Below are positions 1,165 to 63,700 of a stretch of DNA of 64,000 nucleotides, one piece after another. The notes under the pieces are model-generated. The model saw nothing but the letters and a program-made list of their open reading frames with translations, did no database searches and was not told the DNA's origin. Positions within the stretch are counted from its first letter, which is position 1. Each line of letters begins with the position of its first letter. Source of the DNA: a phage. A program made the translations under genes and the position numbers. The stretch lies in sequence record MZ956761.1; one strand, written 5' to 3'.

Positions 1165-1200
1165 GTTTACAACAGGGTAGTAGTGTGATACTATTACCCT
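1165..1200 (+). promoter_or_regulatory. T4-type early promoter candidate embedded in imperfect dyad symmetry
   Basis: GTTTAC at 1165-1170, about 18-nt spacer, gTGaTACTAT -10-like; GGGTAGTA / TACTATTACCC inverted repeat; followed by GAGGAGAATAAAATG. Confidence 0.5.
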
Positions 1201-1222
1201 ATCAACTACTGAGGAGAATAAA

Positions 1223-1465
1223 ATGAGATTACAACGCCAGAGCATCAAAGATTCAGAAGTTAGAGGTAAATGGTATTTTAATATCATCGGTAAAGATTCT
1301 GAGCTTGTTGAAAAAGCTGAACACCTTTTACGTGATATGGGGTGGGAAGATGAATGTGATGGATGTCCTCTTTATGAAGATGGAGAAAGCGCGGGATTTT
1401 GGATTTACCATTCTGACGTTGAACAGTTTAAAGCTGATTGGAAAATTGTGAAAAAGTCTGTTTAA
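1223..1465 (+). CDS. Hypothetical protein (80 aa)
   Basis: ATG with GAGGAG RBS. Confidence 0.6.
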   Translation: MRLQRQSIKDSEVRGKWYFNIIGKDSELVEKAEHLLRDMGWEDECDGCPLYEDGESAGFWIYHSDVEQFKADWKIVKKSV

Positions 1466-4141: not shown

Positions 4142-6396
4142 TTAATGTTATCAAAAGTAGTGGTGTTTCTCAGAGCTTTGACCCGCAAAAAATTATTAAA
4201 GTTTTATCTTGGGCAGCTGAAGGAACATCTGTAGATCCTTATGAATTATATGAAAATATTAAATCATATCTCCGTGATGGAATGACAACTGATGACATTC
4301 AGACTATTGTCATTAAGGCTGCTGCGAATTCTATTTCAGTTGAAGAGCCTGATTACCAATATGTAGCTGCACGCTGTTTAATGTTCGCTCTTCGTAAACA
4401 TGTTTACGGGCAGTATGAACCACGTTCATTTATTGACCATATTTCTTACTGTGTAAATGAAGGTAAATATGACCCTGAACTGTTGTCAAAATATTCTGCC
4501 GAAGAAATTACATTTTTAGAATCAAAAATTAAGCATGAGCGGGATATGGAATTTACTTATTCCGGGGCGATGCAATTAAAAGAAAAATATCTAGTTAAAG
4601 ATAAAACCACTGGTCAAATTTATGAAACTCCACAGTTTGCATTTATGACTATTGGAATGGCATTGCATCAAGATGAACCTGTTGATAGATTAAAACACGT
4701 TATCCGTTTTTATGAAGCAGTATCTACTCGACAGATTTCACTGCCAACTCCTATTATGGCTGGTTGCCGTACTCCAACTCGGCAGTTTAGTTCATGCGTT
4801 GTTATTGAAGCAGGTGATTCATTAAAGTCTATCAATAAGGCTTCTGCTTCAATTGTTGAATATATCTCCAAACGCGCTGGAATTGGTATTAACGTTGGTA
4901 TGATTCGTGCCGAAGGTTCTAAGATTGGCACAGGTGAAGTACGCCATACTGGTGTTATTCCTTTTTGGAAACATTTTCAGACTGCAGTTAAATCATGCTC
5001 ACAGGGTGGAATTCGTGGCGGCGCTGCTACTGCTTATTATCCTATTTGGCATTTGGAAGTTGAAAATCTTCTCGTTTTGAAAAATAACAAAGGCGTAGAA
5101 GAAAACCGTATCCGTCATATGGATTATGGCGTTCAACTGAATGACCTAATGATGGAACGATTCGGAAAGAATGATTACATTACTTTGTTCAGTCCGCATG
5201 AAATGGGTGGCGAACTTTATTATTCTTATTTTAAAGACCAAGACCGTTTCCGTGAATTATACGAAGCCGCAGAAAAAGACCCTAATATTCGTAAAAAGCG
5301 TATTAAAGCCCGTGAACTGTTTGAATTGCTCATGACTGAACGCTCAGGAACAGCAAGGATTTATGTACAGTTCATAGATAATACGAATAACTATACTCCG
5401 TTTATTCGTGAAAAGGCACCTATTCGTCAGAGCAACTTGTGCTGTGAAATTGCTATTCCAACAAATGATGTTAATAGCCCTGATGCCGAAATTGGATTGT
5501 GTACGTTATCTGCATTTGTGTTAGATAACTTCGATTGGCAAGACCAAGATAAAATTAATGAATTGGCAGAAGTCCAAGTTCGTGCTCTTGATAATCTTTT
5601 GGACTACCAAGGATATCCAGTTCCTGAAGCAGAAAAAGCTAAAAAGCGTCGAAATCTTGGTGTAGGTGTTACTAACTATGCAGCTTGGCTGGCAAGTAAT
5701 TTTGCTTCTTATGAAGATGCTAACGATTTAACACATGAACTATTTGAGAGATTGCAGTATGGACTCATTAAAGCATCCATTAAGCTCGCCAAAGAAAAAG
5801 GACCTTGCGAATATTATTCAGACACTCGTTGGTCTCGAGGCGAATTACCTATCGACTGGTACAATAAAAAGATTGACCAAATCGCAGCTCCAAAATACGT
5901 TTGTGACTGGTCGTCGCTGCGGGAAGACCTTAAGCTCTTTGGCATCCGTAATAGCACATTATCAGCACTTATGCCATGTGAGTCATCTTCCCAAGTTTCT
6001 AACAGTACAAACGGTATCGAGCCTCCACGTGGACCAGTCTCTGTTAAAGAATCAAAAGAGGGTTCCTTTAATCAAGTCGTGCCCAATATTGAGCATAACA
6101 TAGACCTCTATGATTATACGTGGAAATTAGCTAAGAAAGGTAATAAACCTTATCTTACGCAAGTAGCTATTATGTTGAAATGGGTATGTCAATCAGCTTC
6201 AGCGAATACATATTATGACCCGCAGATTTTTCCAAAAGGAAAGGTTCCAATGTCAATAATGATTGATGACCTTTTATATTTTTGGTATTTTGGCGGAAAA
6301 AATTTCTATTATCATAATACACGCGACGGTTCTGGTACTGATGATTATGAAATAGAAACTCCAAAAGCTGAAGATTGTTCATCCTGTAAATTATGA
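4132..6396 (+). CDS. nrdA: Ribonucleotide reductase large subunit (aerobic class I)
   Basis: 754 aa; ATP-cone N-terminus and catalytic-core motifs; length as T4 NrdA. Confidence 0.95.
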   Translation: MQLINVIKSSGVSQSFDPQKIIKVLSWAAEGTSVDPYELYENIKSYLRDGMTTDDIQTIVIKAAANSISVEEPDYQYVAARCLMFALRKHVYGQYEPRSFIDHISYCVNEGKYDPELLSKYSAEEITFLESKIKHERDMEFTYSGAMQLKEKYLVKDKTTGQIYETPQFAFMTIGMALHQDEPVDRLKHVIRFYEAVSTRQISLPTPIMAGCRTPTRQFSSCVVIEAGDSLKSINKASASIVEYISKRAGIGINVGMIRAEGSKIGTGEVRHTGVIPFWKHFQTAVKSCSQGGIRGGAATAYYPIWHLEVENLLVLKNNKGVEENRIRHMDYGVQLNDLMMERFGKNDYITLFSPHEMGGELYYSYFKDQDRFRELYEAAEKDPNIRKKRIKARELFELLMTERSGTARIYVQFIDNTNNYTPFIREKAPIRQSNLCCEIAIPTNDVNSPDAEIGLCTLSAFVLDNFDWQDQDKINELAEVQVRALDNLLDYQGYPVPEAEKAKKRRNLGVGVTNYAAWLASNFASYEDANDLTHELFERLQYGLIKASIKLAKEKGPCEYYSDTRWSRGELPIDWYNKKIDQIAAPKYVCDWSSLREDLKLFGIRNSTLSALMPCESSSQVSNSTNGIEPPRGPVSVKESKEGSFNQVVPNIEHNIDLYDYTWKLAKKGNKPYLTQVAIMLKWVCQSASANTYYDPQIFPKGKVPMSIMIDDLLYFWYFGGKNFYYHNTRDGSGTDDYEIETPKAEDCSSCKL

Positions 6397-6447
6397 TATA
6401 ATTTGACTCACGGACGAGTCACTATCTATTAACTAAGCGGAAAATTT

Positions 6448-7617
6448 ATGAGCACAGTTTTTAATACAAATCCAGTTGATGTTTTAAAAGAACCTATGTT
6501 CTTCGGTTCAGGTCTTGGTATTGCGCGTTATGATATTCAACGCCATAAAGTTTTTGAAGATTTAACCGAAAAGCAATTATCATTTTTCTGGCGTCCTGAA
6601 GAAGTAAACTTGATGATGGATGCTGCACAATTTAACAAGCTTCCTCAGTATCAACAAGATATTTTTACTAATAACCTGAAGTATCAATCACTTTTGGATA
6701 GCATTCAGGGTCGTGCACCGTCTGCTGTACTTATGTCATTAATTTCAGATCCAAGCCTTGATACATGGGTTGCTACATGGACTTTTAGTGAAACTATTCA
6801 CAGTCGTTCATATACTCATATCATGCGAAATCTTTATACTGATCCGTCAAAGGTGTTTGATGAGATTGTATTAGATAAAGCTATTATGAAACGTGCCGAG
6901 TCCATTGGTCGCTATTACGATGATGTTCTAGTTAAGACTCGTGAATACCAGAACGCGGTTGAAGATTATGAAGGAATTTTATCAGAAGGATTTCGTAAAG
7001 AAGAGCTAGGCAAAGTTGTTGAATGTACTAAACGAGCACTAATGAAATCTCTTTACCTCTGCCTGCACGTAATCAACGCCTTGGAAGCTATTCGTTTTTA
7101 TGTATCTTTCGCATGTACCTTTAACTTCCATAAAAACATGGAAATCATGGAAGGTAATGCCAAGATTATGAAGTTCATTGCACGTGATGAGCAGCTTCAC
7201 CTTAAAGGCACCCAATATATTATTCGTCAACTTCAACTTGGCACTGATGGTGATGAATGGGTTAAAATTGCCCAAGAGTGTGAACAAGAAGCAGTTGATA
7301 TTTTCATGGAAGTTAACCGTCAAGAAAAAGATTGGGCAGTTCATTTATTTAAAGATGGCGATGTTCCTGGATTAAATACAAATAGCATGTGGAGCTTTAT
7401 TGATTACTTAACTGTATCTCGTATGAAACAGTGCGGTCTTCCATGCCCAATTACCGATGCTCCGGTTAAACATCCGTATCCTTGGATTCGTGAATATCTT
7501 AATTCTGATAATGTTCAATCCGCGCCGCAAGAAGTAGAACTGTCATCTTATCTTGTAGCACAGATTGATAATGATGTTGATGATAAAGTTATGATGAGTT
7601 TTAAAAAATATTTTTAA
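6448..7617 (+). CDS. nrdB: Ribonucleotide reductase small subunit, uninterrupted (no intron)
   Basis: 389 aa continuous ORF; T4 nrdB carries a group I intron, absent here. Confidence 0.95.
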   Translation: MSTVFNTNPVDVLKEPMFFGSGLGIARYDIQRHKVFEDLTEKQLSFFWRPEEVNLMMDAAQFNKLPQYQQDIFTNNLKYQSLLDSIQGRAPSAVLMSLISDPSLDTWVATWTFSETIHSRSYTHIMRNLYTDPSKVFDEIVLDKAIMKRAESIGRYYDDVLVKTREYQNAVEDYEGILSEGFRKEELGKVVECTKRALMKSLYLCLHVINALEAIRFYVSFACTFNFHKNMEIMEGNAKIMKFIARDEQLHLKGTQYIIRQLQLGTDGDEWVKIAQECEQEAVDIFMEVNRQEKDWAVHLFKDGDVPGLNTNSMWSFIDYLTVSRMKQCGLPCPITDAPVKHPYPWIREYLNSDNVQSAPQEVELSSYLVAQIDNDVDDKVMMSFKKYF

Positions 7618-9235: not shown

Positions 9236-9289
9236 GTTTACAAGTCCCTCGTGTTGTGTTATAGTAGTCTTACTGACATAACATGAGGA
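9236..9289 (+). promoter_or_regulatory. Early promoter/5'UTR cassette, copy 1 (54 bp, identical to 24489-24542)
   Basis: GTTTAC, about 18-nt spacer, TGtTATAGT, then RBS GAGGA; arms GTCCCTCGTGTTGTG / CATAACATGAGGAC form an imperfect dyad; starts 3 nt after rnlA stop. Confidence 0.7.
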
Positions 9290-9293
9290 CTTT

Positions 9294-9800
9294 ATGATGG
9301 ATTTGCAGCTTATTACTACTGAAATGGTCGTTGAAGCATACGGTGATACTACAGATGGGATTTCTGTATTCAAAGGAAATCGTCGAGTTGGATATATCAC
9401 CGATCTTAAGAAAGATTTAGCTAAGCAAGTTAAGCGGAAAACGACCGTTAAAGAATATCGAAATCGTCGTCTTGAGCAAGCCCGTGATATGCTTCCTGAT
9501 GCGGTTGAAGAGATGAAAGTCTTTTTAGAAAATCAACTCGCTAAGTATGATTGTGAAGTGTTCATTAATCAGACTCAACCTAATGTTCATATCAATAGCT
9601 GTAAATGCTATATCATCGTTAATCCTTTAACGGGAAAACATCGTCTTGGAATTAGTAATCCAAATCGTAGTGCATCGGATATGGCAGAAGATGTTGAGGC
9701 ATGCTTTAAAATTTCTAAATCTCCGGCGGAACATCATATTTTAATTAACGGTCTTTCTCAAGACGATATTGTAGAGGTTATTAAAACTTTATGCATGTAA
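9294..9800 (+). CDS. alc: Alc, inhibitor of host transcription on cytosine-containing DNA
   Basis: 168 aa MMDLQLITTEMVVEAYGD...; length and position as in T4. Confidence 0.85.
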   Translation: MMDLQLITTEMVVEAYGDTTDGISVFKGNRRVGYITDLKKDLAKQVKRKTTVKEYRNRRLEQARDMLPDAVEEMKVFLENQLAKYDCEVFINQTQPNVHINSCKCYIIVNPLTGKHRLGISNPNRSASDMAEDVEACFKISKSPAEHHILINGLSQDDIVEVIKTLCM

Positions 9801-12541: not shown

Positions 12542-12580
12542 GTTTACTTTATGGTAGAGTTGTGATATTATAGCTCTACC
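12542..12580 (+). promoter_or_regulatory. T4-type early promoter embedded in dyad symmetry
   Basis: GTTTAC 12542-12547, 18-nt spacer, gTGaTATTAT; GGTAGAG / CTCTACC inverted repeat flanks the -10; GAGGAAAACAAAATG follows. Confidence 0.6.
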
Positions 12581-12601
12581 AAAACAAATGAGGAAAACAA
12601 A

Positions 12602-12838
12602 ATGCTAAGTGAAAAACCAATTACTGTTAAAGAATTCCAAGAAAAAGTTAAACTATTTGCTCAGGAATTGGTAAATAAGGTTTCTGAACGATTTCCAGAA
12701 ACATCGGTTCGCGTTATTACCGAAACTCCTCGTTCAGTATTAGTAATTGTGAATCCAGGTGATGGTGATCAAATAACACATCTCAAACTGGATTTTGATG
12801 GATTAGTTGAAGCACAAAGGGTGTATGGCGTACTATGA
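12602..12838 (+). CDS. cd.2: Hypothetical protein (78 aa)
   Basis: ATG ORF with GAGGAAA RBS; symbol by synteny. Confidence 0.55.
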   Translation: MLSEKPITVKEFQEKVKLFAQELVNKVSERFPETSVRVITETPRSVLVIVNPGDGDQITHLKLDFDGLVEAQRVYGVL

Positions 12839-14696: not shown

Positions 14697-14835
14697 ATAA
14701 TATGAATTGGGTGTCGGAATAATAAGTTAACCGAACAATTCTACGTGGTAGTCTACAACTGAGAGATCTGTCGAAAGAAGATGAAATTCAGAAGAACGTG
14801 ACTACCGAATTTTAATCTCTAACGAGAATTTTTAA

Positions 14836-15084
14836 ATGATTAAACAATTACAACACGCTCTTGAACTGCAACGAAACGCATGGAATAATGGTCACGAAAA
14901 CTATGGCGCATCTATTGATGTTGAAGCCGAAGCTCTTGAAATCCTGCGTTATTTCAAACATCTGAATCCTGCTCAAACTGCATTAGCTGCTGAGCTTCAG
15001 GAAAAAGATGAACTTAAATATGCTAAGCCTCTGGCTTCTGCCGCACGAAAAGCAGTTCGTCACTTTGTGGTAACACTGAAGTAA
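14836..15084 (+). CDS. rIII: rIII lysis-inhibition accessory protein
   Basis: 82 aa MIKQLQHALELQRNAWNNGHENYG...; length as T4 RIII. Confidence 0.85.
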   Translation: MIKQLQHALELQRNAWNNGHENYGASIDVEAEALEILRYFKHLNPAQTALAAELQEKDELKYAKPLASAARKAVRHFVVTLK

Positions 15085-15279
15085 TTTATTGGAGAGTCAC
15101 TGCCTTAGTGTGAAGTTAAAACGAGGAGCCGTCGAACTTTGTTTTACGGTGTACCTCTTGAATGTTGACGAGGTTTATGGTTATCCTGTCGGTAAATATT
15201 CAAAACCTAAGTACCCCCTTGAGGGCTTGCGCAGGCAATGCCAATAAGTCCTGCATTTTCATTTAAAAGAGAATTTATA

Positions 15280-15456
15280 ATGGCAAAACAAGCTAAAGCA
15301 AAGAAAGCAGTTGAAAAGAAAGTTGGTGATTCTAAACGCGCTGGTTACAAGCGTGGGTCGAACTCTCGTATCAATCAAACTGTTGAGAAGATCATGCGCC
15401 GAGCACGTGCGGTTCTTCGAGATGATGCTTCTCGTTTTGGTAAGCAGAAAGTATAA
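15280..15456 (+). CDS. 30.9: Small highly basic protein (about 58 aa)
   Basis: MAKQAKAKKAVEKKVGDSKRAGYKRG...; the upstream ATG at 15238 has no RBS; symbol by synteny (9 ORFs between rIII and gene 30). Confidence 0.55.
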   Translation: MAKQAKAKKAVEKKVGDSKRAGYKRGSNSRINQTVEKIMRRARAVLRDDASRFGKQKV

Positions 15457-15462
15457 GTTGAG

Positions 15463-15490
15463 GACTCCTTCGGGAGTCCTTTTTATTTTC
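15463..15490 (+). terminator. Rho-independent terminator
   Basis: GGACTCC-TTCG-GGAGTCC hairpin followed by TTTTTATTTT. Confidence 0.75.
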
Positions 15491-15508
15491 CAAAGATTGC
15501 ACAAAGTT

Positions 15509-15545
15509 GTTTACAGTATGGTTCCTTTGTGATAGTATTATCTTA
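15509..15545 (+). promoter_or_regulatory. T4-type early promoter
   Basis: GTTTAC 15509-15514, 18-nt spacer, gTGaTAGTAT; followed by AAAGGAGAATAAAATG. Confidence 0.6.
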
Positions 15546-15565
15546 CACAAACAAAGGAGAATAAA

Positions 15566-15898
15566 ATGAAAACGATTAATCTGAACGCTGCAGTTAAAAC
15601 TAAATGCTTCAATGGTAAATATGATGAAACTATGTGGTTCTTAATGGCAGTTGAAGGTGATATTATTGAAGTAGAAACAACAGAAGGTATGGGAACAGAT
15701 TTCACCTTTACAATTCAAGTTCATAATTTCTTTACTGGTTGGATTTATGAATTGAATACAGTAATCGTTGGAAAAATTGAACAAAATGAATTAGGTGAAT
15801 GGCATTATGTTACAGCTCGCCAACGCGCAGAACGCTTAATTGAGAAGATGAAAAAAGTTGGTAAACTTGACATGCAGCACTGGAAAGTAGTAAAATAA
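15566..15898 (+). CDS. 30.8: Hypothetical protein (110 aa)
   Basis: ATG with AAGGAGA RBS; symbol by synteny. Confidence 0.6.
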   Translation: MKTINLNAAVKTKCFNGKYDETMWFLMAVEGDIIEVETTEGMGTDFTFTIQVHNFFTGWIYELNTVIVGKIEQNELGEWHYVTARQRAERLIEKMKKVGKLDMQHWKVVK

Positions 15899-15901
15899 TT
15901 G

Positions 15902-15942
15902 TTTACTTTGGTACAGGATATGATATTATATACCTGTACCGC
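15902..15942 (+). promoter_or_regulatory. T4-type early promoter embedded in dyad symmetry
   Basis: GTTTAC 15902-15907, 17-nt spacer, TATTAT; GGTACAGG / CCTGTACC inverted repeat flanks the -10. Confidence 0.6.
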
Positions 15943-15965
15943 AATTAAACATCTTGGAGAATAAA

Positions 15966-16331
15966 ATGAACTACATCAACTTTGAACGTAAATATGTTTC
16001 TAATGGTATTGCAGGTTCTATTGATACTATTTGCCTCTGGAAACATCAAAACGGATCAGTATGCGAAATTGAACAGTATATGACTCCTAACTACGTTTAT
16101 ATGCGATTTGAAAATGGCATCACGGTTTCAATCACAATGGAAGGTTCCAACTTCAAAATCGCTCTGGATGATGATTTTCGTCAACGTGATTTAGGGACTC
16201 ATCCTTGCTGGAATGGCGTTAATCGCAAGCTTCTGGTTAAAACTTGGATTCGTCATATTCTGAGTAACAGAGCTAAACCTGAGCATCTTGAAGCGATCTT
16301 TGATGTAGTTCTTAATGAATTTGATATTTAA
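15966..16331 (+). CDS. 30.7: Hypothetical protein (121 aa)
   Basis: ATG at 15966 with GGAGAATAAA RBS (track ORF starts at an upstream TTG); symbol by synteny. Confidence 0.6.
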   Translation: MNYINFERKYVSNGIAGSIDTICLWKHQNGSVCEIEQYMTPNYVYMRFENGITVSITMEGSNFKIALDDDFRQRDLGTHPCWNGVNRKLLVKTWIRHILSNRAKPEHLEAIFDVVLNEFDI

Positions 16332-16342
16332 AATAAAATGAG

Positions 16343-16356
16343 GGGCTTCGGCCCCT
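16343..16356 (+). terminator. GC hairpin without clear U-tract (attenuator or processing/stability element)
   Basis: GGGGC-TTCG-GCCCC between 30.7 and 30.6, followed by TTACTGAGGAAAA. Confidence 0.35.
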
Positions 16357-16372
16357 TACTGAGGAAAATATA

Positions 16373-16660
16373 ATGTTTATGACTACTTATTTTGATACTC
16401 GTAAAAACTTCTGCGAAGTGGTTTTCTCTAAGGCGCCTAAAGACCTTCCTGCTCATTTGCAACCTACCAGCGAATCGATTAAAAACTACGTTAATGTAGT
16501 ATGTCCTTTAGAGTTCCGTACTGTAAATGGGCGCGATACTTTAGCTATCACTAAACTTAATCGTGAAATTGACATTGACCCTTCAATTGCGCGTGAAATT
16601 AATATTTCTGATATTGGCGGTGGTAATGTTAAATCACACGGCTTTCAGATGAGGTTCTAA
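16373..16660 (+). CDS. 30.6: Hypothetical protein (95 aa)
   Basis: ATG with GAGGAAAA RBS; symbol by synteny. Confidence 0.55.
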   Translation: MFMTTYFDTRKNFCEVVFSKAPKDLPAHLQPTSESIKNYVNVVCPLEFRTVNGRDTLAITKLNREIDIDPSIAREINISDIGGGNVKSHGFQMRF

Positions 16661-18368: not shown

Positions 18369-18637
18369 TGTTTGTTGTTCACACTATTTATGAAAATGAA
18401 GGTAATACTACTCGTGATTACGGTCACGTAAATCAATTTTTTAGATGCAATCCAGAATTTCGAGCTCAAAAAGACGAACGAATTTTTAAAAAATGTGTAG
18501 AGCAAGGTTTCATTTACGTCAAGCATTGGATGCAAGGAAATAAAGTTAGAACCACGTACCATAGGTCTTTGACTGAGCTTAATGATGAATTGATTTATAA
18601 TAGAGCTGTAAACCAAACTCTAAAGGATGAACAATGA
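18368..18637 (+). CDS. 30.1: Hypothetical protein (89 aa)
   Basis: ATG ORF, ATGA overlaps with neighbours; symbol by synteny. Confidence 0.5.
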   Translation: MFVVHTIYENEGNTTRDYGHVNQFFRCNPEFRAQKDERIFKKCVEQGFIYVKHWMQGNKVRTTYHRSLTELNDELIYNRAVNQTLKDEQ

Positions 18638-20097
18638 TTCTTAAAATTCTGAACGAAATAGCATCTATTGGTTCAACTAAGCAGAAGCAAGCAATTCTTG
18701 AAAAGAATAAAGATAATGAATTGCTTAAACGAGTATATCGTCTGACTTATTCTCGTGGGTTGCAGTATTATATCAAGAAATGGCCTAAATCTGGTATTGC
18801 TACCCAGAGTTTTGGAATGTTGACTCTTACCGATATGCTTGACTTCATTGAATTTACATTAGCTACTCGGAAATTGACCGGAAATGCGGCAATTGAGGAA
18901 TTAGTAGGTTATATTACTGACGGTAAAAAAGATGATGTTGAAGTTTTGCGTCGAGTGATGATGCGAGACCTTGAATGTGGTGCTTCAGTATCTATTGCAA
19001 ACAAAGTTTGGCCAGGTTTAATTCCTGAACAACCTCAAATGCTCGCAAGTTCTTATGATGAAAAAGGCATTAGTAAGAATATCAAATTTCCAGCCTTTGC
19101 ACAATTAAAAGCAGATGGAGCTCGGTGTTTTGCTGAAGTCCGAGGTGATGAATTAGATGATGTTCGTCTTTTATCACGAGCTGGTAATGAATATCTAGGA
19201 TTAGATCTTCTTAAGGAAGAGTTAATCAAAATGACTGCTGAAGCCCGCCAGATTCATCCAGAAGGTGTGTTAATCGATGGCGAATTGGTATACCATGAGC
19301 AAGTTAAAAAGGAACCAGAAGGCCTAGATTTTCTTTTTGATGCTTATCCTGAAATTAGTAAAGCTAAAGAATTCGCCGAAGTAGCGGAATCTCGTACTAC
19401 TTCTAATGGAATCGCTAATAAATCTTTAAAGGGAACTATTTCAGAAAAAGAAGCTCAATGCATGAAGTTTCAGGTCTGGGATTATGTTCCGTTGGTAGAA
19501 ATATACGGTCTTCCAGCATTTCGTTTAAAATATGATGTACGTTTTTCTAAATTAGAACAAATGACATCAGGATATGATAAAGTAATTTTAATTGAAAACC
19601 AAGTAGTAAATAACCTAGATGAAGCTAAGGTAATTTATAAAAAGTATATTGACCAAGGTCTTGAAGGTATTATTCTCAAAAATATCGATGGATTATGGGA
19701 AAATGCTCGTTCAAAAAATCTCTATAAATTTAAAGAAGTAATTGATGTTGATTTAAAAATTGTAGGAATTTATCCTCACCGTAAAGACCCTACTAAAGCA
19801 GGTGGATTTATTCTTGAGTCAGAGTGTGGAAAAATTAAGGTAAATGCTGGTTCAGGCTTAAAAGATAAAGCCGGCGTAAAATCGCATGAACTTGACCGTA
19901 CTCGCATTATGGAAAACCAAAATTATTATATTGGAAAAATTCTAGAGTGCGAATGCAACGGTTGGTTAAAATCTGATGGCCGCACTGATTACGTTAAATT
20001 ATTTCTTCCGATTGCGATTCGTTTGCGTGAAGATAAAACTAAAGCTAATACATTCGAAGATGTATTTGGTGATTTTCATGAGGTAACTGGTTTATGA
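18634..20097 (+). CDS. 30: ATP-dependent DNA ligase
   Basis: 487 aa; adenylation motif KADGAR (FAQLKADGARCFAEV); length as T4 ligase. Confidence 0.95.
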   Translation: MILKILNEIASIGSTKQKQAILEKNKDNELLKRVYRLTYSRGLQYYIKKWPKSGIATQSFGMLTLTDMLDFIEFTLATRKLTGNAAIEELVGYITDGKKDDVEVLRRVMMRDLECGASVSIANKVWPGLIPEQPQMLASSYDEKGISKNIKFPAFAQLKADGARCFAEVRGDELDDVRLLSRAGNEYLGLDLLKEELIKMTAEARQIHPEGVLIDGELVYHEQVKKEPEGLDFLFDAYPEISKAKEFAEVAESRTTSNGIANKSLKGTISEKEAQCMKFQVWDYVPLVEIYGLPAFRLKYDVRFSKLEQMTSGYDKVILIENQVVNNLDEAKVIYKKYIDQGLEGIILKNIDGLWENARSKNLYKFKEVIDVDLKIVGIYPHRKDPTKAGGFILESECGKIKVNAGSGLKDKAGVKSHELDRTRIMENQNYYIGKILECECNGWLKSDGRTDYVKLFLPIAIRLREDKTKANTFEDVFGDFHEVTGL

Positions 20098-22431: not shown

Positions 22432-24489
22432 ATGGAACTTATTACAGAATTATTTGACGGCGCTTCGGCGCCGGTTGTTAACTTAAATCCTAAGCATAAA
22501 ATACCTCAAATTTTTGCTATTCAAGCCGGTGAAGAAAGTGTTCTCCCTGGATTTAGATTTTGTACATACACCTCTGGTGGTGATACAAATAAAAACGTTA
22601 AGCCAGGCGATAAAATGATGCATATCGTAATGATAGGTGTCAATGAGAAACTATCATTAGTTAAGCTTAAAAACTTGGGTGGAAATCCAATTGGTGTCAT
22701 TAATGCCGTTTTTGATACTGCTCTTCAAACAATGAAACAGTATAAAATCGACGCATGCCTATTCCGCGTACTAAAAAGTAAAACAAATGGCGCAGCTCGT
22801 CAAATGCAAGTTATTGCTGACCGTTTAGTACGTACTAAGGGAGCAGGTCGATATGTTCTTTTAAAGGAAATCTGGGACTATGATAAAAAATATGCATATA
22901 TTATGGTTTACCGTAAAAATGCCAATTTAGAAGACATTCCAGGTGTACCTCCTATTTCAACTGAGTTATTCACAAAAGTTGAATCAAAGGTTGGTGATGT
23001 TTATGTAGATGTTAAAACAGGTAATGCTGTTCCTAAAGCTGTTGCTGTTGCTGCTTCTATTGCTTTAGAAAATGATAAGCGCACGGATCAAGCTGTTATT
23101 CAGAAAACTAAAATTAGTCGTCGATTAGCAGCACAAGCTCAATATTCTACTGTTGATGCTTCACTTCAGGGTGATAGCTTCGCCGCTAAGAAATATCAAG
23201 AGTTTGAATCTAAAGTTCCGGTATATAAAGCAGAAGGACCAATGAACTCTGGCGTTATTCAGATTGGTTCCAACTTCGGCAAAGGAGCTATCGGTGGTAT
23301 GAGAAGTGCTTCTCGTTTTAAATCTAACGATTATGAACTAGAAAGCTTTCGAAATCATATTGCATTGGCCCATGCACGTTTACGTGATCCGTCTATCAGA
23401 CTGCAGAGCGATATAACACATCAAGGTTCTCAAGAATATTTAAAGAATAAAGAATTTTTTGATTATAAAACCGATAAAATTTTGAGCGATCTCGCTGACA
23501 TTAATATTTCTAATAGCTTTGATGTTATTAAGAAAATTATCAATGATTTAGTTAAAGGTTCTAAAGCCACGCCAGACGAAAAGGTAGCTATTATTCAATT
23601 TGTCATGAATAGCATTTATAAATTGATTAATGAATCTGCTGCCCAGGCATATGAATACGCAAGCACCGAAGTAACTCCAAAAGGACTGACTCAGGCTGAA
23701 TCTGATGTAATTGAAGATTATTGTGCAGATTCATATGTTGAAATGAACTCGTTCCTTTTGGGTAAACCAGATTCTACCCGTGAAGAATACATGGAACGAG
23801 CTATTAAACACATCGAGACGTTGGATTCTGCATTCGCCAAAGGATCAGTTCTTCCTCCAGGAACTACGCTTTATCGTGGACAAGAAGTTACTTTTAAAAC
23901 TTTACGCCATAATATTGAAAATAAAATGTTCTATTTCAAGAACTTCGTATCAACATCGCTTAAACCAAATATCTTCGGTGAGCATGGTAAAAACTATATG
24001 GCTCTAGATGATTCTGGCGCAGTATTTTCTGGCGAAGGAGAAGGTTCTGTTGATGCAGAAGATTTGATGCATATGGGTAGTCATTCTACATATGCCAATG
24101 AAGATGCTGAAACTAGCGTAGGTATGGTAATTAAAGGGGCTGAGCGAATCAAAGTTATCGTTCCAGGTCATTTATCAGGATTTCCATCAGAAGCTGAAGT
24201 TATTCTACCACGTGGAATTTTGTTGAAGATTAATAAAGTAAGCACGTACATGATGAAAGAAACTGCTTATAACAAGTATCTAATCGAAGGTACAATCGTT
24301 CCTCCTTCTGAACAATTAGAAGAATCAGTATATGATGGAGACCATCTAATGGAAACTGGTGAAGTTCGTCCAATGGCTGGATTTAATCAATTCCTTGTAG
24401 AAGAATCAAAAGAAGAGGAAAACGAAGTTTCTCAAATCTTGGCTTCTTTGGTTAACATCAACGGAATGTCTAAAAAGTTCAAGATGTAG
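22432..24489 (+). CDS. Alt-family ADP-ribosyltransferase, paralog 2
   Basis: 685 aa; N-terminal about 230 aa closely similar to paralog 1, divergent middle region, R (LYRGQ), STS (FVSTSL) and E-x-E (SEAEVILPRG) motifs retained. Confidence 0.85.
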   Translation: MELITELFDGASAPVVNLNPKHKIPQIFAIQAGEESVLPGFRFCTYTSGGDTNKNVKPGDKMMHIVMIGVNEKLSLVKLKNLGGNPIGVINAVFDTALQTMKQYKIDACLFRVLKSKTNGAARQMQVIADRLVRTKGAGRYVLLKEIWDYDKKYAYIMVYRKNANLEDIPGVPPISTELFTKVESKVGDVYVDVKTGNAVPKAVAVAASIALENDKRTDQAVIQKTKISRRLAAQAQYSTVDASLQGDSFAAKKYQEFESKVPVYKAEGPMNSGVIQIGSNFGKGAIGGMRSASRFKSNDYELESFRNHIALAHARLRDPSIRLQSDITHQGSQEYLKNKEFFDYKTDKILSDLADINISNSFDVIKKIINDLVKGSKATPDEKVAIIQFVMNSIYKLINESAAQAYEYASTEVTPKGLTQAESDVIEDYCADSYVEMNSFLLGKPDSTREEYMERAIKHIETLDSAFAKGSVLPPGTTLYRGQEVTFKTLRHNIENKMFYFKNFVSTSLKPNIFGEHGKNYMALDDSGAVFSGEGEGSVDAEDLMHMGSHSTYANEDAETSVGMVIKGAERIKVIVPGHLSGFPSEAEVILPRGILLKINKVSTYMMKETAYNKYLIEGTIVPPSEQLEESVYDGDHLMETGEVRPMAGFNQFLVEESKEEENEVSQILASLVNINGMSKKFKM

Positions 24490-24542
24490 TTTACAAGTCC
24501 CTCGTGTTGTGTTATAGTAGTCTTACTGACATAACATGAGGA
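24489..24542 (+). promoter_or_regulatory. Early promoter/5'UTR cassette, copy 2 (54 bp, identical to 9236-9289)
   Basis: Exact 54-nt identity with the cassette upstream of alc; begins at the last base of the alt paralog 2 stop codon. Confidence 0.7.
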
Positions 24543-24549
24543 ACACAAA

Positions 24550-24840
24550 ATGAAATCTTCTTTACGCTTTTTAGGTCAAGAACTTGTAGTTGAAGGCGTT
24601 ATTCCTGCTGATAACGCTTTTAATGAAGCAGTTTACGATGAATTTATCAAAATTTTTGGAACAGATAAAAAGTTCGGAATTTTTCCTTCTGAAAATTTTT
24701 CAAAGCCAGAACAGACTGAAAGCATTTTCCAAGGTGTAGTAACAGGTAAATTTGAGTCAGAAGCTCCGGTAAAAATTGAAGTTTATATTGAAGACAGTTT
24801 AGTTGCTTCAGTTGCTGCTTTTATTTCATTCCGTAAATAA
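24550..24840 (+). CDS. Hypothetical protein (96 aa)
   Basis: ATG with GAGGA RBS supplied by the repeated cassette; followed by bidirectional terminator. Confidence 0.55.
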   Translation: MKSSLRFLGQELVVEGVIPADNAFNEAVYDEFIKIFGTDKKFGIFPSENFSKPEQTESIFQGVVTGKFESEAPVKIEVYIEDSLVASVAAFISFRK

Positions 24841-60780: not shown

Positions 60781-63700
60781 CTATTTTAACCTGTGTTGGA
60801 TTTTCAGGGTCTCTTGGATTTCCTATATTATCTTTTAGACGTTTATCAACTAAATCTCTAAATTGCGCAAATGTTGTTCCAGATGCATCAAATAAAGGAC
60901 TCATTAATTTACGTCGTTCAGACGGCAATTGACCTTGAAATATTGAATTATTATTTTCAGCATTATAGTCATCAGGAAGAGGATATTTTACACCAGCCAT
61001 TGGGCCAGGCTCATAAATTGCTTCGCCTGTTACTGAATCATGCTCAATTTCACCAGTTGGAGTTAATTTAGCTACTCTATCAGCATATTCAGTAGGCAAT
61101 CCAGAATCCCATTTATAGTTTTTGTATTTATTAATTATAGTCTCTGTATGTTTAAGAGTTAAACCAACATTAATAAACATCGTTAAAAGAGTAATTGCTA
61201 TAAATCCAAATCCTACTGGATGAACAAAACGAATAACGTCAGATTTCCAACGAGAAGAAGGTAAATTGGATTTAATTTTCATTACATAGTATGATCTACT
61301 TCTATTAATATAGTCTATATTGTTTTGAAGCAAATCCTTTCCTTTAACGCCACGAATAATTTCGCCTTCAAAACTAGGGAGTCTTTCTGCTTTAACTTCT
61401 TGACCAGCAATTAATCTTCCCAAAAGATTATGAATAGTTACGGTCCATTGCAATTTACCATTAGAATAGCTTCTTTCTATATAAGTAACATTACATCTTC
61501 CTGTGGCTGTATAAATCGTTTGTCCTACTAAGTCTTCAGTCAAAGAATCAGATTGAACGATTATATCATATTCAGTACCAGCCCCAGATTCAATTTCAAT
61601 TTCAACTTCTTCATTATAAAGAACTTTAAAAAGAAATTTGTATGATGCTTCAATTCCTTTAGTAGAATAAAAATCATAGCTACGCGATTCAAAGAATCTC
61701 GCAACAGCATCACGTTTATCAGCATTTAAATAAATGTTTCTTTTATATATCTCTGACCACAAATATTCCCATGCATGCTCTTCTCGTGGATATTGGTTAC
61801 GAATTAAATTTCGTAAATTGTTATACTGAGTTCCATATCCATCAGAAAGATATTGAATATATGCTTCGCAAAATGCCTCAAAATTCGAATCCTGTAACAA
61901 ATAAGAATCAGGCATCATTGTGCCAATTAATGGTCTTAAATCAGGGTCAGCTAATCCACGCTCTTCTTCTGGTGACCAAGGAGTCTCATGCTCTTGGTTT
62001 TGTAAAAATGCTTTTAAAAATACTTCAGTTGGCTTCCAAATAATTTCTACTGTATCTCTCACACGATAGTTAAAATCATAGTAAGAAATTATTTCACCGG
62101 AGGCTTTATAGAAAAGCATTCCTGATGCGTATTTTTTAAATCCAGTGAATTTAACATTTGGCATTACTATAGTACAATCGCCATCATCCCAATATTCATG
62201 AACTAATCTATCTGGTGATGTTTCCGGAATATTTTCTATAACTTTAGTGTATTTTAAATCAGCATAAACTACTACAGCTCTATCAGAGTTGTTTATCCAA
62301 CAACGTGTGTTAGATTTTTTAGACCAGTTAAAGAACGGTTCTGCGTAGTATTTCATTGGTTGAGGAGTAAAAGTCTCCCAATCAGATTTTTCATCCGCTA
62401 TAAATGCCATCATATGATAATGCTTATCAGCTAACCATTCACGAGGAAATTCATATTTAACAGCGCCAATTAACTGATATTTTGCTGCAGTTTCAGGGTC
62501 ATTAACAACATTATCACTTAAAAATTTAAAATTACTCGAAGACAGAGAAACTAATTTACCGTCAGTTGACATATTCGCATATCCGGGTTGAATACGTCTT
62601 CTTTCTTCTTCGGTATTACCAAAAACTCTTTTCCATGTTTTTTCGTCATGATTTAAAACATATATTCCTTTATCAGCGGAATCAATTATTTTTGATGTTC
62701 TCGGATTGGCATTTAATGTTTCAACTTCTCCAATAATAAGAGCAAAAACTTTATCACCGATAGAATCCATTTTATAGCATACTGCTTTAGGATTTCCGGT
62801 TATAGTCATAGTATCAGGTTCAAAAAGTCTTTCCGAATATGTTGGAGATAATGGATCAGAATCTATAGGTGCATTACTCGTTTTTATGTATCTAACTTTG
62901 TCTCTGGCGACAACGTAAATGTAATCATCGGTGCAAGTAATAGCTTCTGCAATGCGGTATACATTCGCTGGCAAAGTCGCGTAAGTGGCAAAAATTTCTA
63001 CATCAAATCCTAGATGTAATTGGTCGCCAAGTTTAGCAAATGTTATATCCTGAGAACTAAATCTGACATCATCGGCTGACCATCTAACATCAGTAGATTT
63101 GCGGCCATAGAAAATCTTGTCGTATCCTAGAACGTATGTTGTGTTCGCAGATTGGTAATATACTGTCTTAGATAAAGGATATCCTACACGGTCATTGAAG
63201 AGCTTCACAGCTTTCCAGGTTTGTCCTTTATCATTAGATACTTTAACTACGGGTTGATAGCGCTCAAAAAGATATAGAATCCCTTCTGATTCCATCAAAT
63301 AAACACGGTTAATATCCTTACATACTTGCTGAATAGAACCTTGTATTTCATGATATTCATTTTCACCAATAATAAAATTACTTATTGATGAAACATCAAC
63401 ATATGATGGGCTGAATTGGAACGATTCATTCATCAATGCAGCCATTATAGTGTCATTATTAAAATTAACATAATCAGAATTATTAAGAGTAAATTTTTCC
63501 TGAATGAATTTATTGGCTAATTGCATTTCAATCATGTTTTGAAATGTATAAGCATTTGTAGCAAAAGTTTCAAACTCTTCAGTATAAATCCAATCAGACT
63601 GCTCAAAATCTTGCGCAGCTGTAGCTACCCTAATAATGTATGATGTCAATGGATCAGCATCATCAAAAAAGAAGCTGTTATTTGCAGTATATCCTAAGTT

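Follow-up and report, generated by a model that had tools for sequence, protein, structure and literature searches.

The DNA analysed here is a window of 64,000 nucleotides (nt) from a phage (record MZ956761.1), and the elements in question are the early promoters standing in front of its small genes 30.8 and 30.7, each of which is embedded in a dyad symmetry. The window derives from a Tequatrovirus and aligns collinearly with the T4 minus strand, with about 96% identity across the 30.x region, its plus strand having the polarity of T4 early transcripts. Escherichia phage ADUt matches it at 100% identity over 14800-16400, and about 800 Tequatrovirus and related records match that stretch. The genes follow in the order pseT, cd.5 to cd, 31.2, 31.1, 31, rIII, 30.9, 30.8, 30.7, 30.6 to 30.1 and DNA ligase, and the coordinates of the features discussed below are collected in Table 1.

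The early-promoter motif TT[TG]AC-N13-16-TGnTAnnnT was found six times on the plus strand of the window, where about 2.3 matches would be expected on both strands together, and all six matches are intergenic, lie just 5' of a start codon and fall in early regions; in the T4 genome the motif has 33 matches on the early strand. The features of a T4 early promoter (Pe), namely GTTTAC at -36 to -31, a TGn extended -10, a TAnnnT hexamer and a conserved upstream block, are all present. In the 30.8 promoter GTTTAC occupies 15509-15514, the -35 hexamer TTTACA 15510-15515 and the extended -10 TGaTAGTAT 15530-15538, while the 30.7 promoter has GTTTAC at 15901-15906, TTTACT at 15902-15907 and TGaTATTAT at 15921-15929. 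Both have orthologues in T4 (at 130.3 and 129.9 kb), the former being the T4 promoter at 130309 with one spacer base different and the latter identical to that at 129917, and the Lutter record annotates promoters at both sites. An earlier, sequence-only reading of this DNA had placed early promoters embedded in dyads at 15509, 15902, 1165 and 12542. These are indeed there with small coordinate corrections (the GTTTAC and TATTAT/TAGTAT elements are present, the second GTTTAC starting at 15901 and not at 15902), and two further copies of the same architecture, at 9236 and 24489, have to be added to that list. Its claim that every small open reading frame (ORF) of the 30.x cluster has such a promoter does not hold, as only two of about ten, 30.8 and 30.7, carry one, and 30.6 to 30.1 are closely packed behind them without any.

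Both promoters have complementary sequences on either side of the -10 element. In front of 30.8 the left arm UUCCUUUGU lies in the promoter spacer and the right arm ACAAAGGAG contains the GGAG of the ribosome-binding site (RBS), which leaves the -10 element in the loop, and the fold has an energy of -12.1 kcal/mol (z -2.1). In front of 30.7 the core arms GGTACAGG and CCTGTACC are lengthened by AUAU/AUAU, the TGn and the -10 element sit in the apical part and the RBS remains outside, with a fold of -19.4 kcal/mol (z -4.85). This second inverted repeat had been pointed out before and is real, its true coordinates (15910-15917 and 15933-15940) lying one base to the left of those first reported. 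Over the six elements of the window the fold z runs from -1.8 to -5.9 (-1.8 at 1165, -5.9 at 12542, -5.4 at 9236 and -4.4 at 24489). The predicted start of 30.8 transcription falls inside the hairpin loop, and RNA from this gene's own promoter would consequently lack the left arm. Because the predicted starts lie inside the dyads, in the loop or in the right arm, only RNA that reads through from upstream would fold. The predicted mean probability of being unpaired for the 30.8 GGAG is 0.84 in the own-promoter transcript versus 0.04 in the read-through transcript, and the Shine-Dalgarno (SD) sequence of the 9236 cassette behaves alike (0.65 versus 0.01), while that of 30.7 gives 0.40 for own-promoter and 0.76 for read-through RNA.

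The dyads are not chance. For 30 early promoters of the whole T4 genome we paired each spacer with its own leader and with the leaders of the other promoters, and duplexes at or below -15 kcal/mol were formed by 11/30 cognate versus 13/870 (1.5%) non-cognate pairs; none of 20,000 permutations (0/20,000) equalled the observed value. Similarly, when IMG/VR was searched for GTTTAC...TGnTAnnnT...GGAGAATAAAATG, 94 distinct elements came out, which a spacer-distance filter reduced to 33 representatives with dissimilar spacers (single-linkage similarity had given 11 clusters). Among these representatives 18/33 pair at or below -10 kcal/mol versus 10.8% of non-cognate pairs, and the cognate leader was ranked first or second in 18/33. 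The hairpins use several registers (33, 34, 37 and 39) and have no single consensus structure, and only the commonest register was counted formally. In this family of 12 sequences both partners have changed in 11/15 pairs, and the share of paired cells is 89%, versus 31-61% with the partner slid; that share owes something to the way the sequences were chosen, whereas the diversity of compensating pairs does not. No Rfam family matched in the window or in the relative L001. One may still ask whether the dyads arose by chance, or merely follow from the promoter consensus and the shared ancestry of promoter copies, as the innermost pairs do fall on letters conserved for the promoter itself (TG opposite the 3' portion of the -10 element) and some promoters, for example 9236 and 24489, are recent duplicates. 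Against this stand shuffle z-scores as low as -6 and the arms of the 30.7 hairpin, which are invariant in 14 IMG/VR relatives amid diverged flanking non-coding sequence, and the permutation tests together with the compensatory changes at 11/15 positions largely refute such an explanation, which we find scarcely credible.

The pairing has a strand. Mismatches in the stem interiors are of the G·U type on the sense strand in 15 cases and of the A·C type in 1, the same numbers being obtained by two independent procedures; interior mismatches were used because fixed-column counts of alignment A1 (9 G·U, 7 A·C) include the unpaired ends of shorter stems. The sense strand is also more stable than the antisense strand in 27/33 elements, and a C-to-T change in the 30.7 arm of the relative L005 still pairs as G·U. 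Neutral transitions would yield G·T or A·C equally, and neither a cruciform nor a palindromic binding site for a protein would favour one strand, so that the skew of 15:1 argues for selection on the sense transcript. The earlier proposal that the dyad folds as a hairpin in read-through RNA is supported by these numbers; its companion proposal of a DNA cruciform is not supported, as the same asymmetry speaks against a structure alike on both strands. A role of the dyad in double-stranded DNA, where it might form a cruciform or offer a palindromic binding site to a protein that tunes early promoters or turns them off, would agree with its centring on the extended -10 element, and the mechanism by which T4 early promoters are shut off has been described as not understood. 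But the arm sequences differ completely between promoters, which means that there is no common protein site, the excess of G·U over A·C would be unexpected, and the long-range pairings with the RBS have loops of 20-45 nt and would make poor cruciforms. We have rejected the cruciform and operator explanations on these grounds and regard them as very improbable.

The leader that follows the promoters is itself a repeated element. GGAGAATAAAATG occurs three times in the window (1213, 15556 and 15956) versus 0.00 expected, and the same GGAGAATAAA-ATG leader, which the sequence-only reading had placed after each of its four elements, follows three of them, the element at 12542 having GAGGAAAACAAAATG instead. 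This leader had been taken simply as an RBS, and its identity with a nuclease target consensus had been missed. GGAGAAUAAAA is exactly the published 11-nt consensus (GGAG plus an A-rich, C-free 7-mer) for efficient RegB/S1 cleavage stated in Durand 2006 (PMC1702504), where 26 sites are mapped. RegB cuts the SD sequence of early mRNAs, secondary structure blocks the cleavage, and structure around GGAG confers resistance to RegB (Durand 2006, PMC1702504). The 30.8, 30.7 and frd.1 leaders, with GGAGAAUAAAA in the translation initiation region, thus resemble RegB/S1 targets in sequence and are putative sites of this kind.

Upstream of the 30.8 promoter stands a stem-loop of another nature. The hairpin at 15460-15490 reads GAGGACTCC-TTCG-GGAGTCC followed by a T-run in the terminator scan, folds at -15.4 kcal/mol (z -3.7) and was the sole report of that scan on the plus strand of the interval; the Lutter and G9062 records annotate a terminator at this site. 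Its G+C-rich stem-loop (15460-15481) and U-run TTTTTATTTT are those of an intrinsic terminator, which the dyads around the -10 elements are not by the same measure. The sequence-only reading had overlooked that this first dyad of the interval is an ordinary terminator. No U-run follows any of the hairpins around a -10 element, and these are therefore not canonical terminators, unlike 15460-15490.

From what was observed here, namely the sequence features, a pairing that is non-random and covaries, its asymmetry between the strands and the mosaic junctions, we infer a course of events that is to be taken conditionally as to where transcription starts, how translation, RegB cleavage and stability are affected, and whether there is attenuation. 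We consider it probable that the two units are early expression cassettes of the T4 type, of the kind described below as promoter-early stem-loops (PeSLs), in which the hairpin sets apart, and most likely insulates, read-through RNA. Each has a very strong sigma-70 promoter, with a conserved upstream block, a GTTTAC -35 and an extended -10 (TGnTAnnAT), from which the host RNA polymerase would fire directly after infection. Transcription would start about 7 nt after the -10 element and give a leader of 21-30 nt whose GGAGAAUAAAA could serve both as RBS and as an optimal RegB/S1 target, and translation would be expected to rise in a burst before the nuclease shuts it off. The spacer is complementary to the sequence just after the -10 element (30.7) or to the RBS itself (30.8), and only RNA reading through from an upstream promoter would hold both arms and so fold, by which the hairpin may distinguish, and most likely insulate, read-through from own-promoter RNA. 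At 30.8 the hairpin would bury GGAG, block both translation and RegB cutting of the read-through copies and back up the terminator at 15460-15490, while at 30.7 it would form a stable intercistronic stem that leaves the RBS open. At the level of DNA, the repeated modules of promoter and leader may act as junctions for the gain, loss and swapping of cassettes.

Two classes can be told apart in this respect. The right arm covers the RBS in 30.8 and 9236/24489 of the window and in the regB, denV, 166806, 53942 and 8217 promoters of T4, whereas in 30.7, 12542 and 1165 the stem lies directly around the -10 element and the RBS is free. In T4 the spacer of the regB promoter at 62796 pairs over 14 bp (2 G·U) with the SD region of regB itself (fold z -5.8), and read-through regB mRNA would by this model be untranslatable and protected from RegB self-cleavage.

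Several observations weigh against the insulation reading. The margin of the 30.8 hairpin over its shuffles is modest (z -2.1, 5/200), about half of the T4 early promoters have no significant pairing of spacer and leader, the 12 sequences of the commonest register were picked for folding in that register, and the energy gap between sense and antisense may partly reflect base composition. Gene content is mostly conserved within Tequatrovirus, and the loss of 30.8 was seen only in the T2 lineage. The 30.7 hairpin leaves the RBS unmasked, its predicted accessibility being the higher in read-through RNA, from which it follows that masking is not the explanation at 30.7 and that one masking mechanism cannot serve both genes.

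The stem-loops might instead mainly attenuate or terminate polymerases arriving from upstream and so limit the build-up of transcription along the cluster, as the PeSL authors originally proposed. One RB49 PeSL stem-loop did cut lacZ expression about as well as the rrnB T1 terminator (Arbiol 2010, PMC2839356), and T4 offers a further argument, as a strong embedded hairpin accompanies an upstream intrinsic terminator in 0/9 cases and its absence in 11/21 (Fisher p = 0.011), which would fit functional redundancy. This suggests that embedded hairpin and upstream terminator are alternative ways of handling upstream transcription, and it fits both the insulation model and the attenuator idea. The RB49 stem that was tested, however, was G/C-rich, unlike the stems of the window, whose -10 hairpins are followed by A-rich sequence without a U-tract, for example ACCUGUACCGCAAUUAAAC; apart from the separate 15460 hairpin the terminator scan lists nothing on this strand of the interval, and many right arms sit specifically on the RBS, for which termination has no need. 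We therefore hold attenuation as the main function to be unlikely. Rather doubtful too is a role in RNA stability or processing, in which, after cuts by RegB or RNase E/G, the stem would shield the 3' end of the upstream message, such as 30.8 mRNA. Hairpins of the 30.7 type lie 10-25 nt 5' of an unmasked RegB site, and the state of the 3' end is known to matter in the decay of RegB-processed T4 RNAs, but neither the place of the left arm inside the promoter spacer nor the right arms that cover the RBS would be explained by it, and we give this role little chance.

Beyond the two cassettes, we put forward only tentatively, as a conjecture that may well prove wrong, that insulation is part of a general switch in T4-like early genes which responds to the origin of the transcript, the spacers having co-evolved with their own leaders so as to insulate mobile cassettes. 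RNA derived from upstream would be masked and RegB-resistant or otherwise marked, and RNA from the own promoter would be open. If true, such a switch would make a small-gene cassette behave alike at any landing site and, given the mutual exclusion in T4, would be an alternative to an intrinsic terminator before the promoter. This goes beyond the published PeSL description of terminator/promoter modules and recombination sites. If confirmed experimentally, the covariation of spacer and leader, the selection on sense RNA and the restriction of strong embedded hairpins to promoters without an upstream terminator would explain how densely packed accessory genes of phages are insulated from each other's transcription and would furnish a design rule for portable expression cassettes.

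Comparison of the interval among relatives showed that its gene content is not invariant and that the dyads are conserved, in agreement with the sequence-only reading, which had seen in the promoter-hairpin-RBS unit a mark of cassette gain and loss. In T2 and its close isolates 30.8 is absent, and its promoter and leader run straight into the start codon of 30.7, the junction lying inside a 15-nt direct repeat GGAGAATAAAATGAA and amounting to an exact deletion of 400 bp. In G9062 the flanks of 30.8 are conserved, but the ORF body between them (15586-15884) is a different one. With IME08 (Dhakavirus) and EP32a (Mosigvirus) the homology sets in again precisely at 15901, and in place of the 30.8 promoter these phages have another cassette, which resembles the T4 denV promoter and whose spacer again pairs weakly with GGAG. 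Directly behind the leader of the cd.2 promoter, at 12598-12604, one more ORF is inserted in Lutter, G9062 and IME08. These four cases, the T2 deletion, the G9062 swap, the restart at 15901 and the insertions at 12598-12604, speak for the units as sites of gain and loss, and the T2 deletion between repeats is compatible with recombination through PeSL mini-circles. In a neighbouring interval, between rIII and 30.9 (about 15143-15170), the promoter-like TTTACGGTGTACCTCTTGAATGTTA is followed in several relatives by some 230 nt of G+C-rich inserted sequence, of which the window keeps only a stump. The insert lies at 4339-4566 in L001 and is present also in L005, L016, L021 and L024, and G9062 annotates in it an ORF of 62 aa; it contains no tRNA (ARAGORN; Lutter) and no Rfam family.

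Cassettes of this sort are known from other T4-like phages. PeSLs were defined in RB49 and phi1 as strong early promoters with a stem-loop and, 3' of it, an SD sequence and ATG (Arbiol et al. 2010, PMC2839356); there the stem-loop most commonly stands between -35 and -10 or overlaps the -10, G-T pairs were noted, and the elements were linked to ORF insertions and deletions and to mini-circles. Comeau et al. 2014 (PMC4122927) extended them to the T4/PST pair with the consensus TTTACW-N17-TAYWAT. The window elements are alike in being early promoters with a stem-loop, SD and ATG, intergenic, repeated, among small accessory ORFs and near indels and swaps, and the AT-rich upstream region of the published descriptions fits them as well. 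Their promoter motif agrees with TTTACW-N17-TAYWAT and is followed by SD and start codon; one stem-loop (15460-15481) lies upstream of the 30.8 promoter and two (15522-15559 and 15909-15941) overlap a -10 element; there are six elements in the window, all in early regions; and indels or replacements accompany them in T2, in G9062, at 12598-12604 and at the homology restarts at 15901, 1209 and 24470. In detail, the 2014 legend puts the T4/PST stem-loops just 5' of the promoter, to which only the 15460 terminator with the 30.8 promoter corresponds in the window, whereas the -10 dyads and RBS pairings resemble the RB49-type classes. The T2 deletion junction differs in lying in the shared leader and not in the stem-loop.

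With the T4 early promoters reviewed by Hinton 2010 (PMC2988021) the window promoters share UP, -35, TGn, -10, GTTTAC and, presumably, immediate-early expression, with no difference at the promoter level, and in the review text searched neither a dyad nor a hairpin is mentioned for early promoters. In the T4 genes e, soc, 49 and I-TevI long transcripts sequester the SD in a helix, and an internal promoter gives a translated RNA without the 5' arm (PMC3014915). By the predicted folds, the 30.8 (15522-15559) and 9236 cassettes would have the geometry of this sequestration (Uzan and Miller 2010), while 30.7, with its SD outside the stem, differs. The internal promoters of e, soc, 49 and I-TevI are late ones that delay expression; those of the window are sigma-70 early promoters and not late (gp55) promoters, and the distinction would here be by the origin of the transcript and not by time. 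A conceptually similar insulator is reported in a preprint (bioRxiv 10.1101/086108), in which short CT-rich anti-SD motifs in sigma-54 promoters are associated with lower expression of the downstream gene only under read-through; this concerns a synthetic library in another promoter class and organism, and the pairing in the window is longer, specific to the own leader and located in phage sigma-70 promoters. The literature searches yielded no mapped 5' ends for the 30.8 and 30.7 promoters and nothing specific on RBS sequestration at T4 early promoters. T4 early promoters and RegB sites belong to textbook knowledge, and as the cassettes match these and the PeSL model, the finding is already known. 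What is added here, namely the statistics of covariation, the asymmetry between strands, the mutual exclusion of embedded hairpin and terminator and the pairing of spacer and RBS, amounts to modest extensions which need experiments.

Table 1. Coordinates of the cassettes and neighbouring genes in the window
Feature	Position	Strand	Description
Cassette at frd.1 (DUF5417)	1165..1225	+	GTTTAC, GGGTAGTAG/CTATTACCC hairpin around -10, GGAGAATAAAATG
Cassette at alc	9236..9296	+	long hairpin with G·U pairs, right arm over GAGG RBS
Cassette at cd.2 (T4 Pe133295)	12542..12604	+	GGTAGAG/CTCTACC hairpin around -10, leader GAGGAAAACAAAATG
Intrinsic terminator after 30.9	15460..15490	+	9-bp stem, UUCG loop, then TTTTTATTTT
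30.8 early promoter	15500..15538	+	upstream CACAAAGTT, GTTTAC, 17-nt spacer, extended -10
30.8 read-through RNA hairpin (predicted)	15522..15559	+	UUCCUUUGU (15522-15530) pairs with ACAAAGGAG (15551-15559)
30.8 predicted transcription start	15545	+	7 nt after -10, from -10 spacing
30.8 Shine-Dalgarno leader	15556..15568	+	GGAGAATAAAA plus ATG, RegB/S1 11-nt consensus
Gene 30.8	15566-15898	+	110 aa, Pfam Phage_30_8
30.7 early promoter	15901..15929	+	GTTTAC, 16-nt spacer, extended -10
30.7 read-through RNA hairpin (predicted)	15909..15941	+	GGTACAGG (15910-15917) / CCTGTACC (15933-15940)
30.7 predicted transcription start	15936	+	inside right arm, from -10 spacing
30.7 leader	15956..15968	+	GGAGAATAAAA plus ATG; direct repeat of 15556-15570; RegB/S1 consensus
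Gene 30.7	15966-16331	+	121 aa, Pfam Phage_T4_Gp30_7
DNA ligase	18634-20097		
Cassette at alt.-3	24489..24552	+	near-identical copy of the 9236 cassette

Some further observations concern the surroundings of the cassettes. Within the end of 30.8, 5 nt 5' of the 30.7 promoter, the stretch 15867-15896 reads TTGACA-18 nt-TAAAAT and matches the sigma-70 consensus at 11/12 positions; its first hexamer is TTGATA in relatives. Between 30.7 and 30.6 a hairpin GGGGC-UUCG-GCCCC (16341-16356) has a T-run on the minus strand and none on the plus strand, and could be an RNA stabiliser or a terminator of antisense transcription.

Elsewhere in the window, many X residues in the translations at about 255-455 indicate ambiguous or masked bases, and the T4 td and nrdB introns and mobE are apparently missing, with alignment gaps versus T4 at 2304-2711, 6392-6448 and 7109-7115. 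Near the frd.1 cassette, the ORFs 514-900 and 860-1162 in the stretch 530-1208 have no megablast match in T4, and T4 homology resumes at 1209, at the GGAGAATAAAATG leader of promoter 1165. The cassettes at 9236-9296 and 24489-24545 are near-identical copies of promoter and hairpin over about 55 bp, direct repeats 15 kb apart, whose T4 counterparts lie at 136335 and 123092. Upstream of the second copy about 1.7 kb (22780-24470) are unmatched in T4, and homology resumes at 24470, 19 nt 5' of promoter 24489. This region holds a full-length second Alt-like ORF of 685 aa (22432-24489), of which T4 has only the fragments alt.-1 and alt.-2, and the stop codon of this ORF overlaps the GTTTAC of the next promoter.

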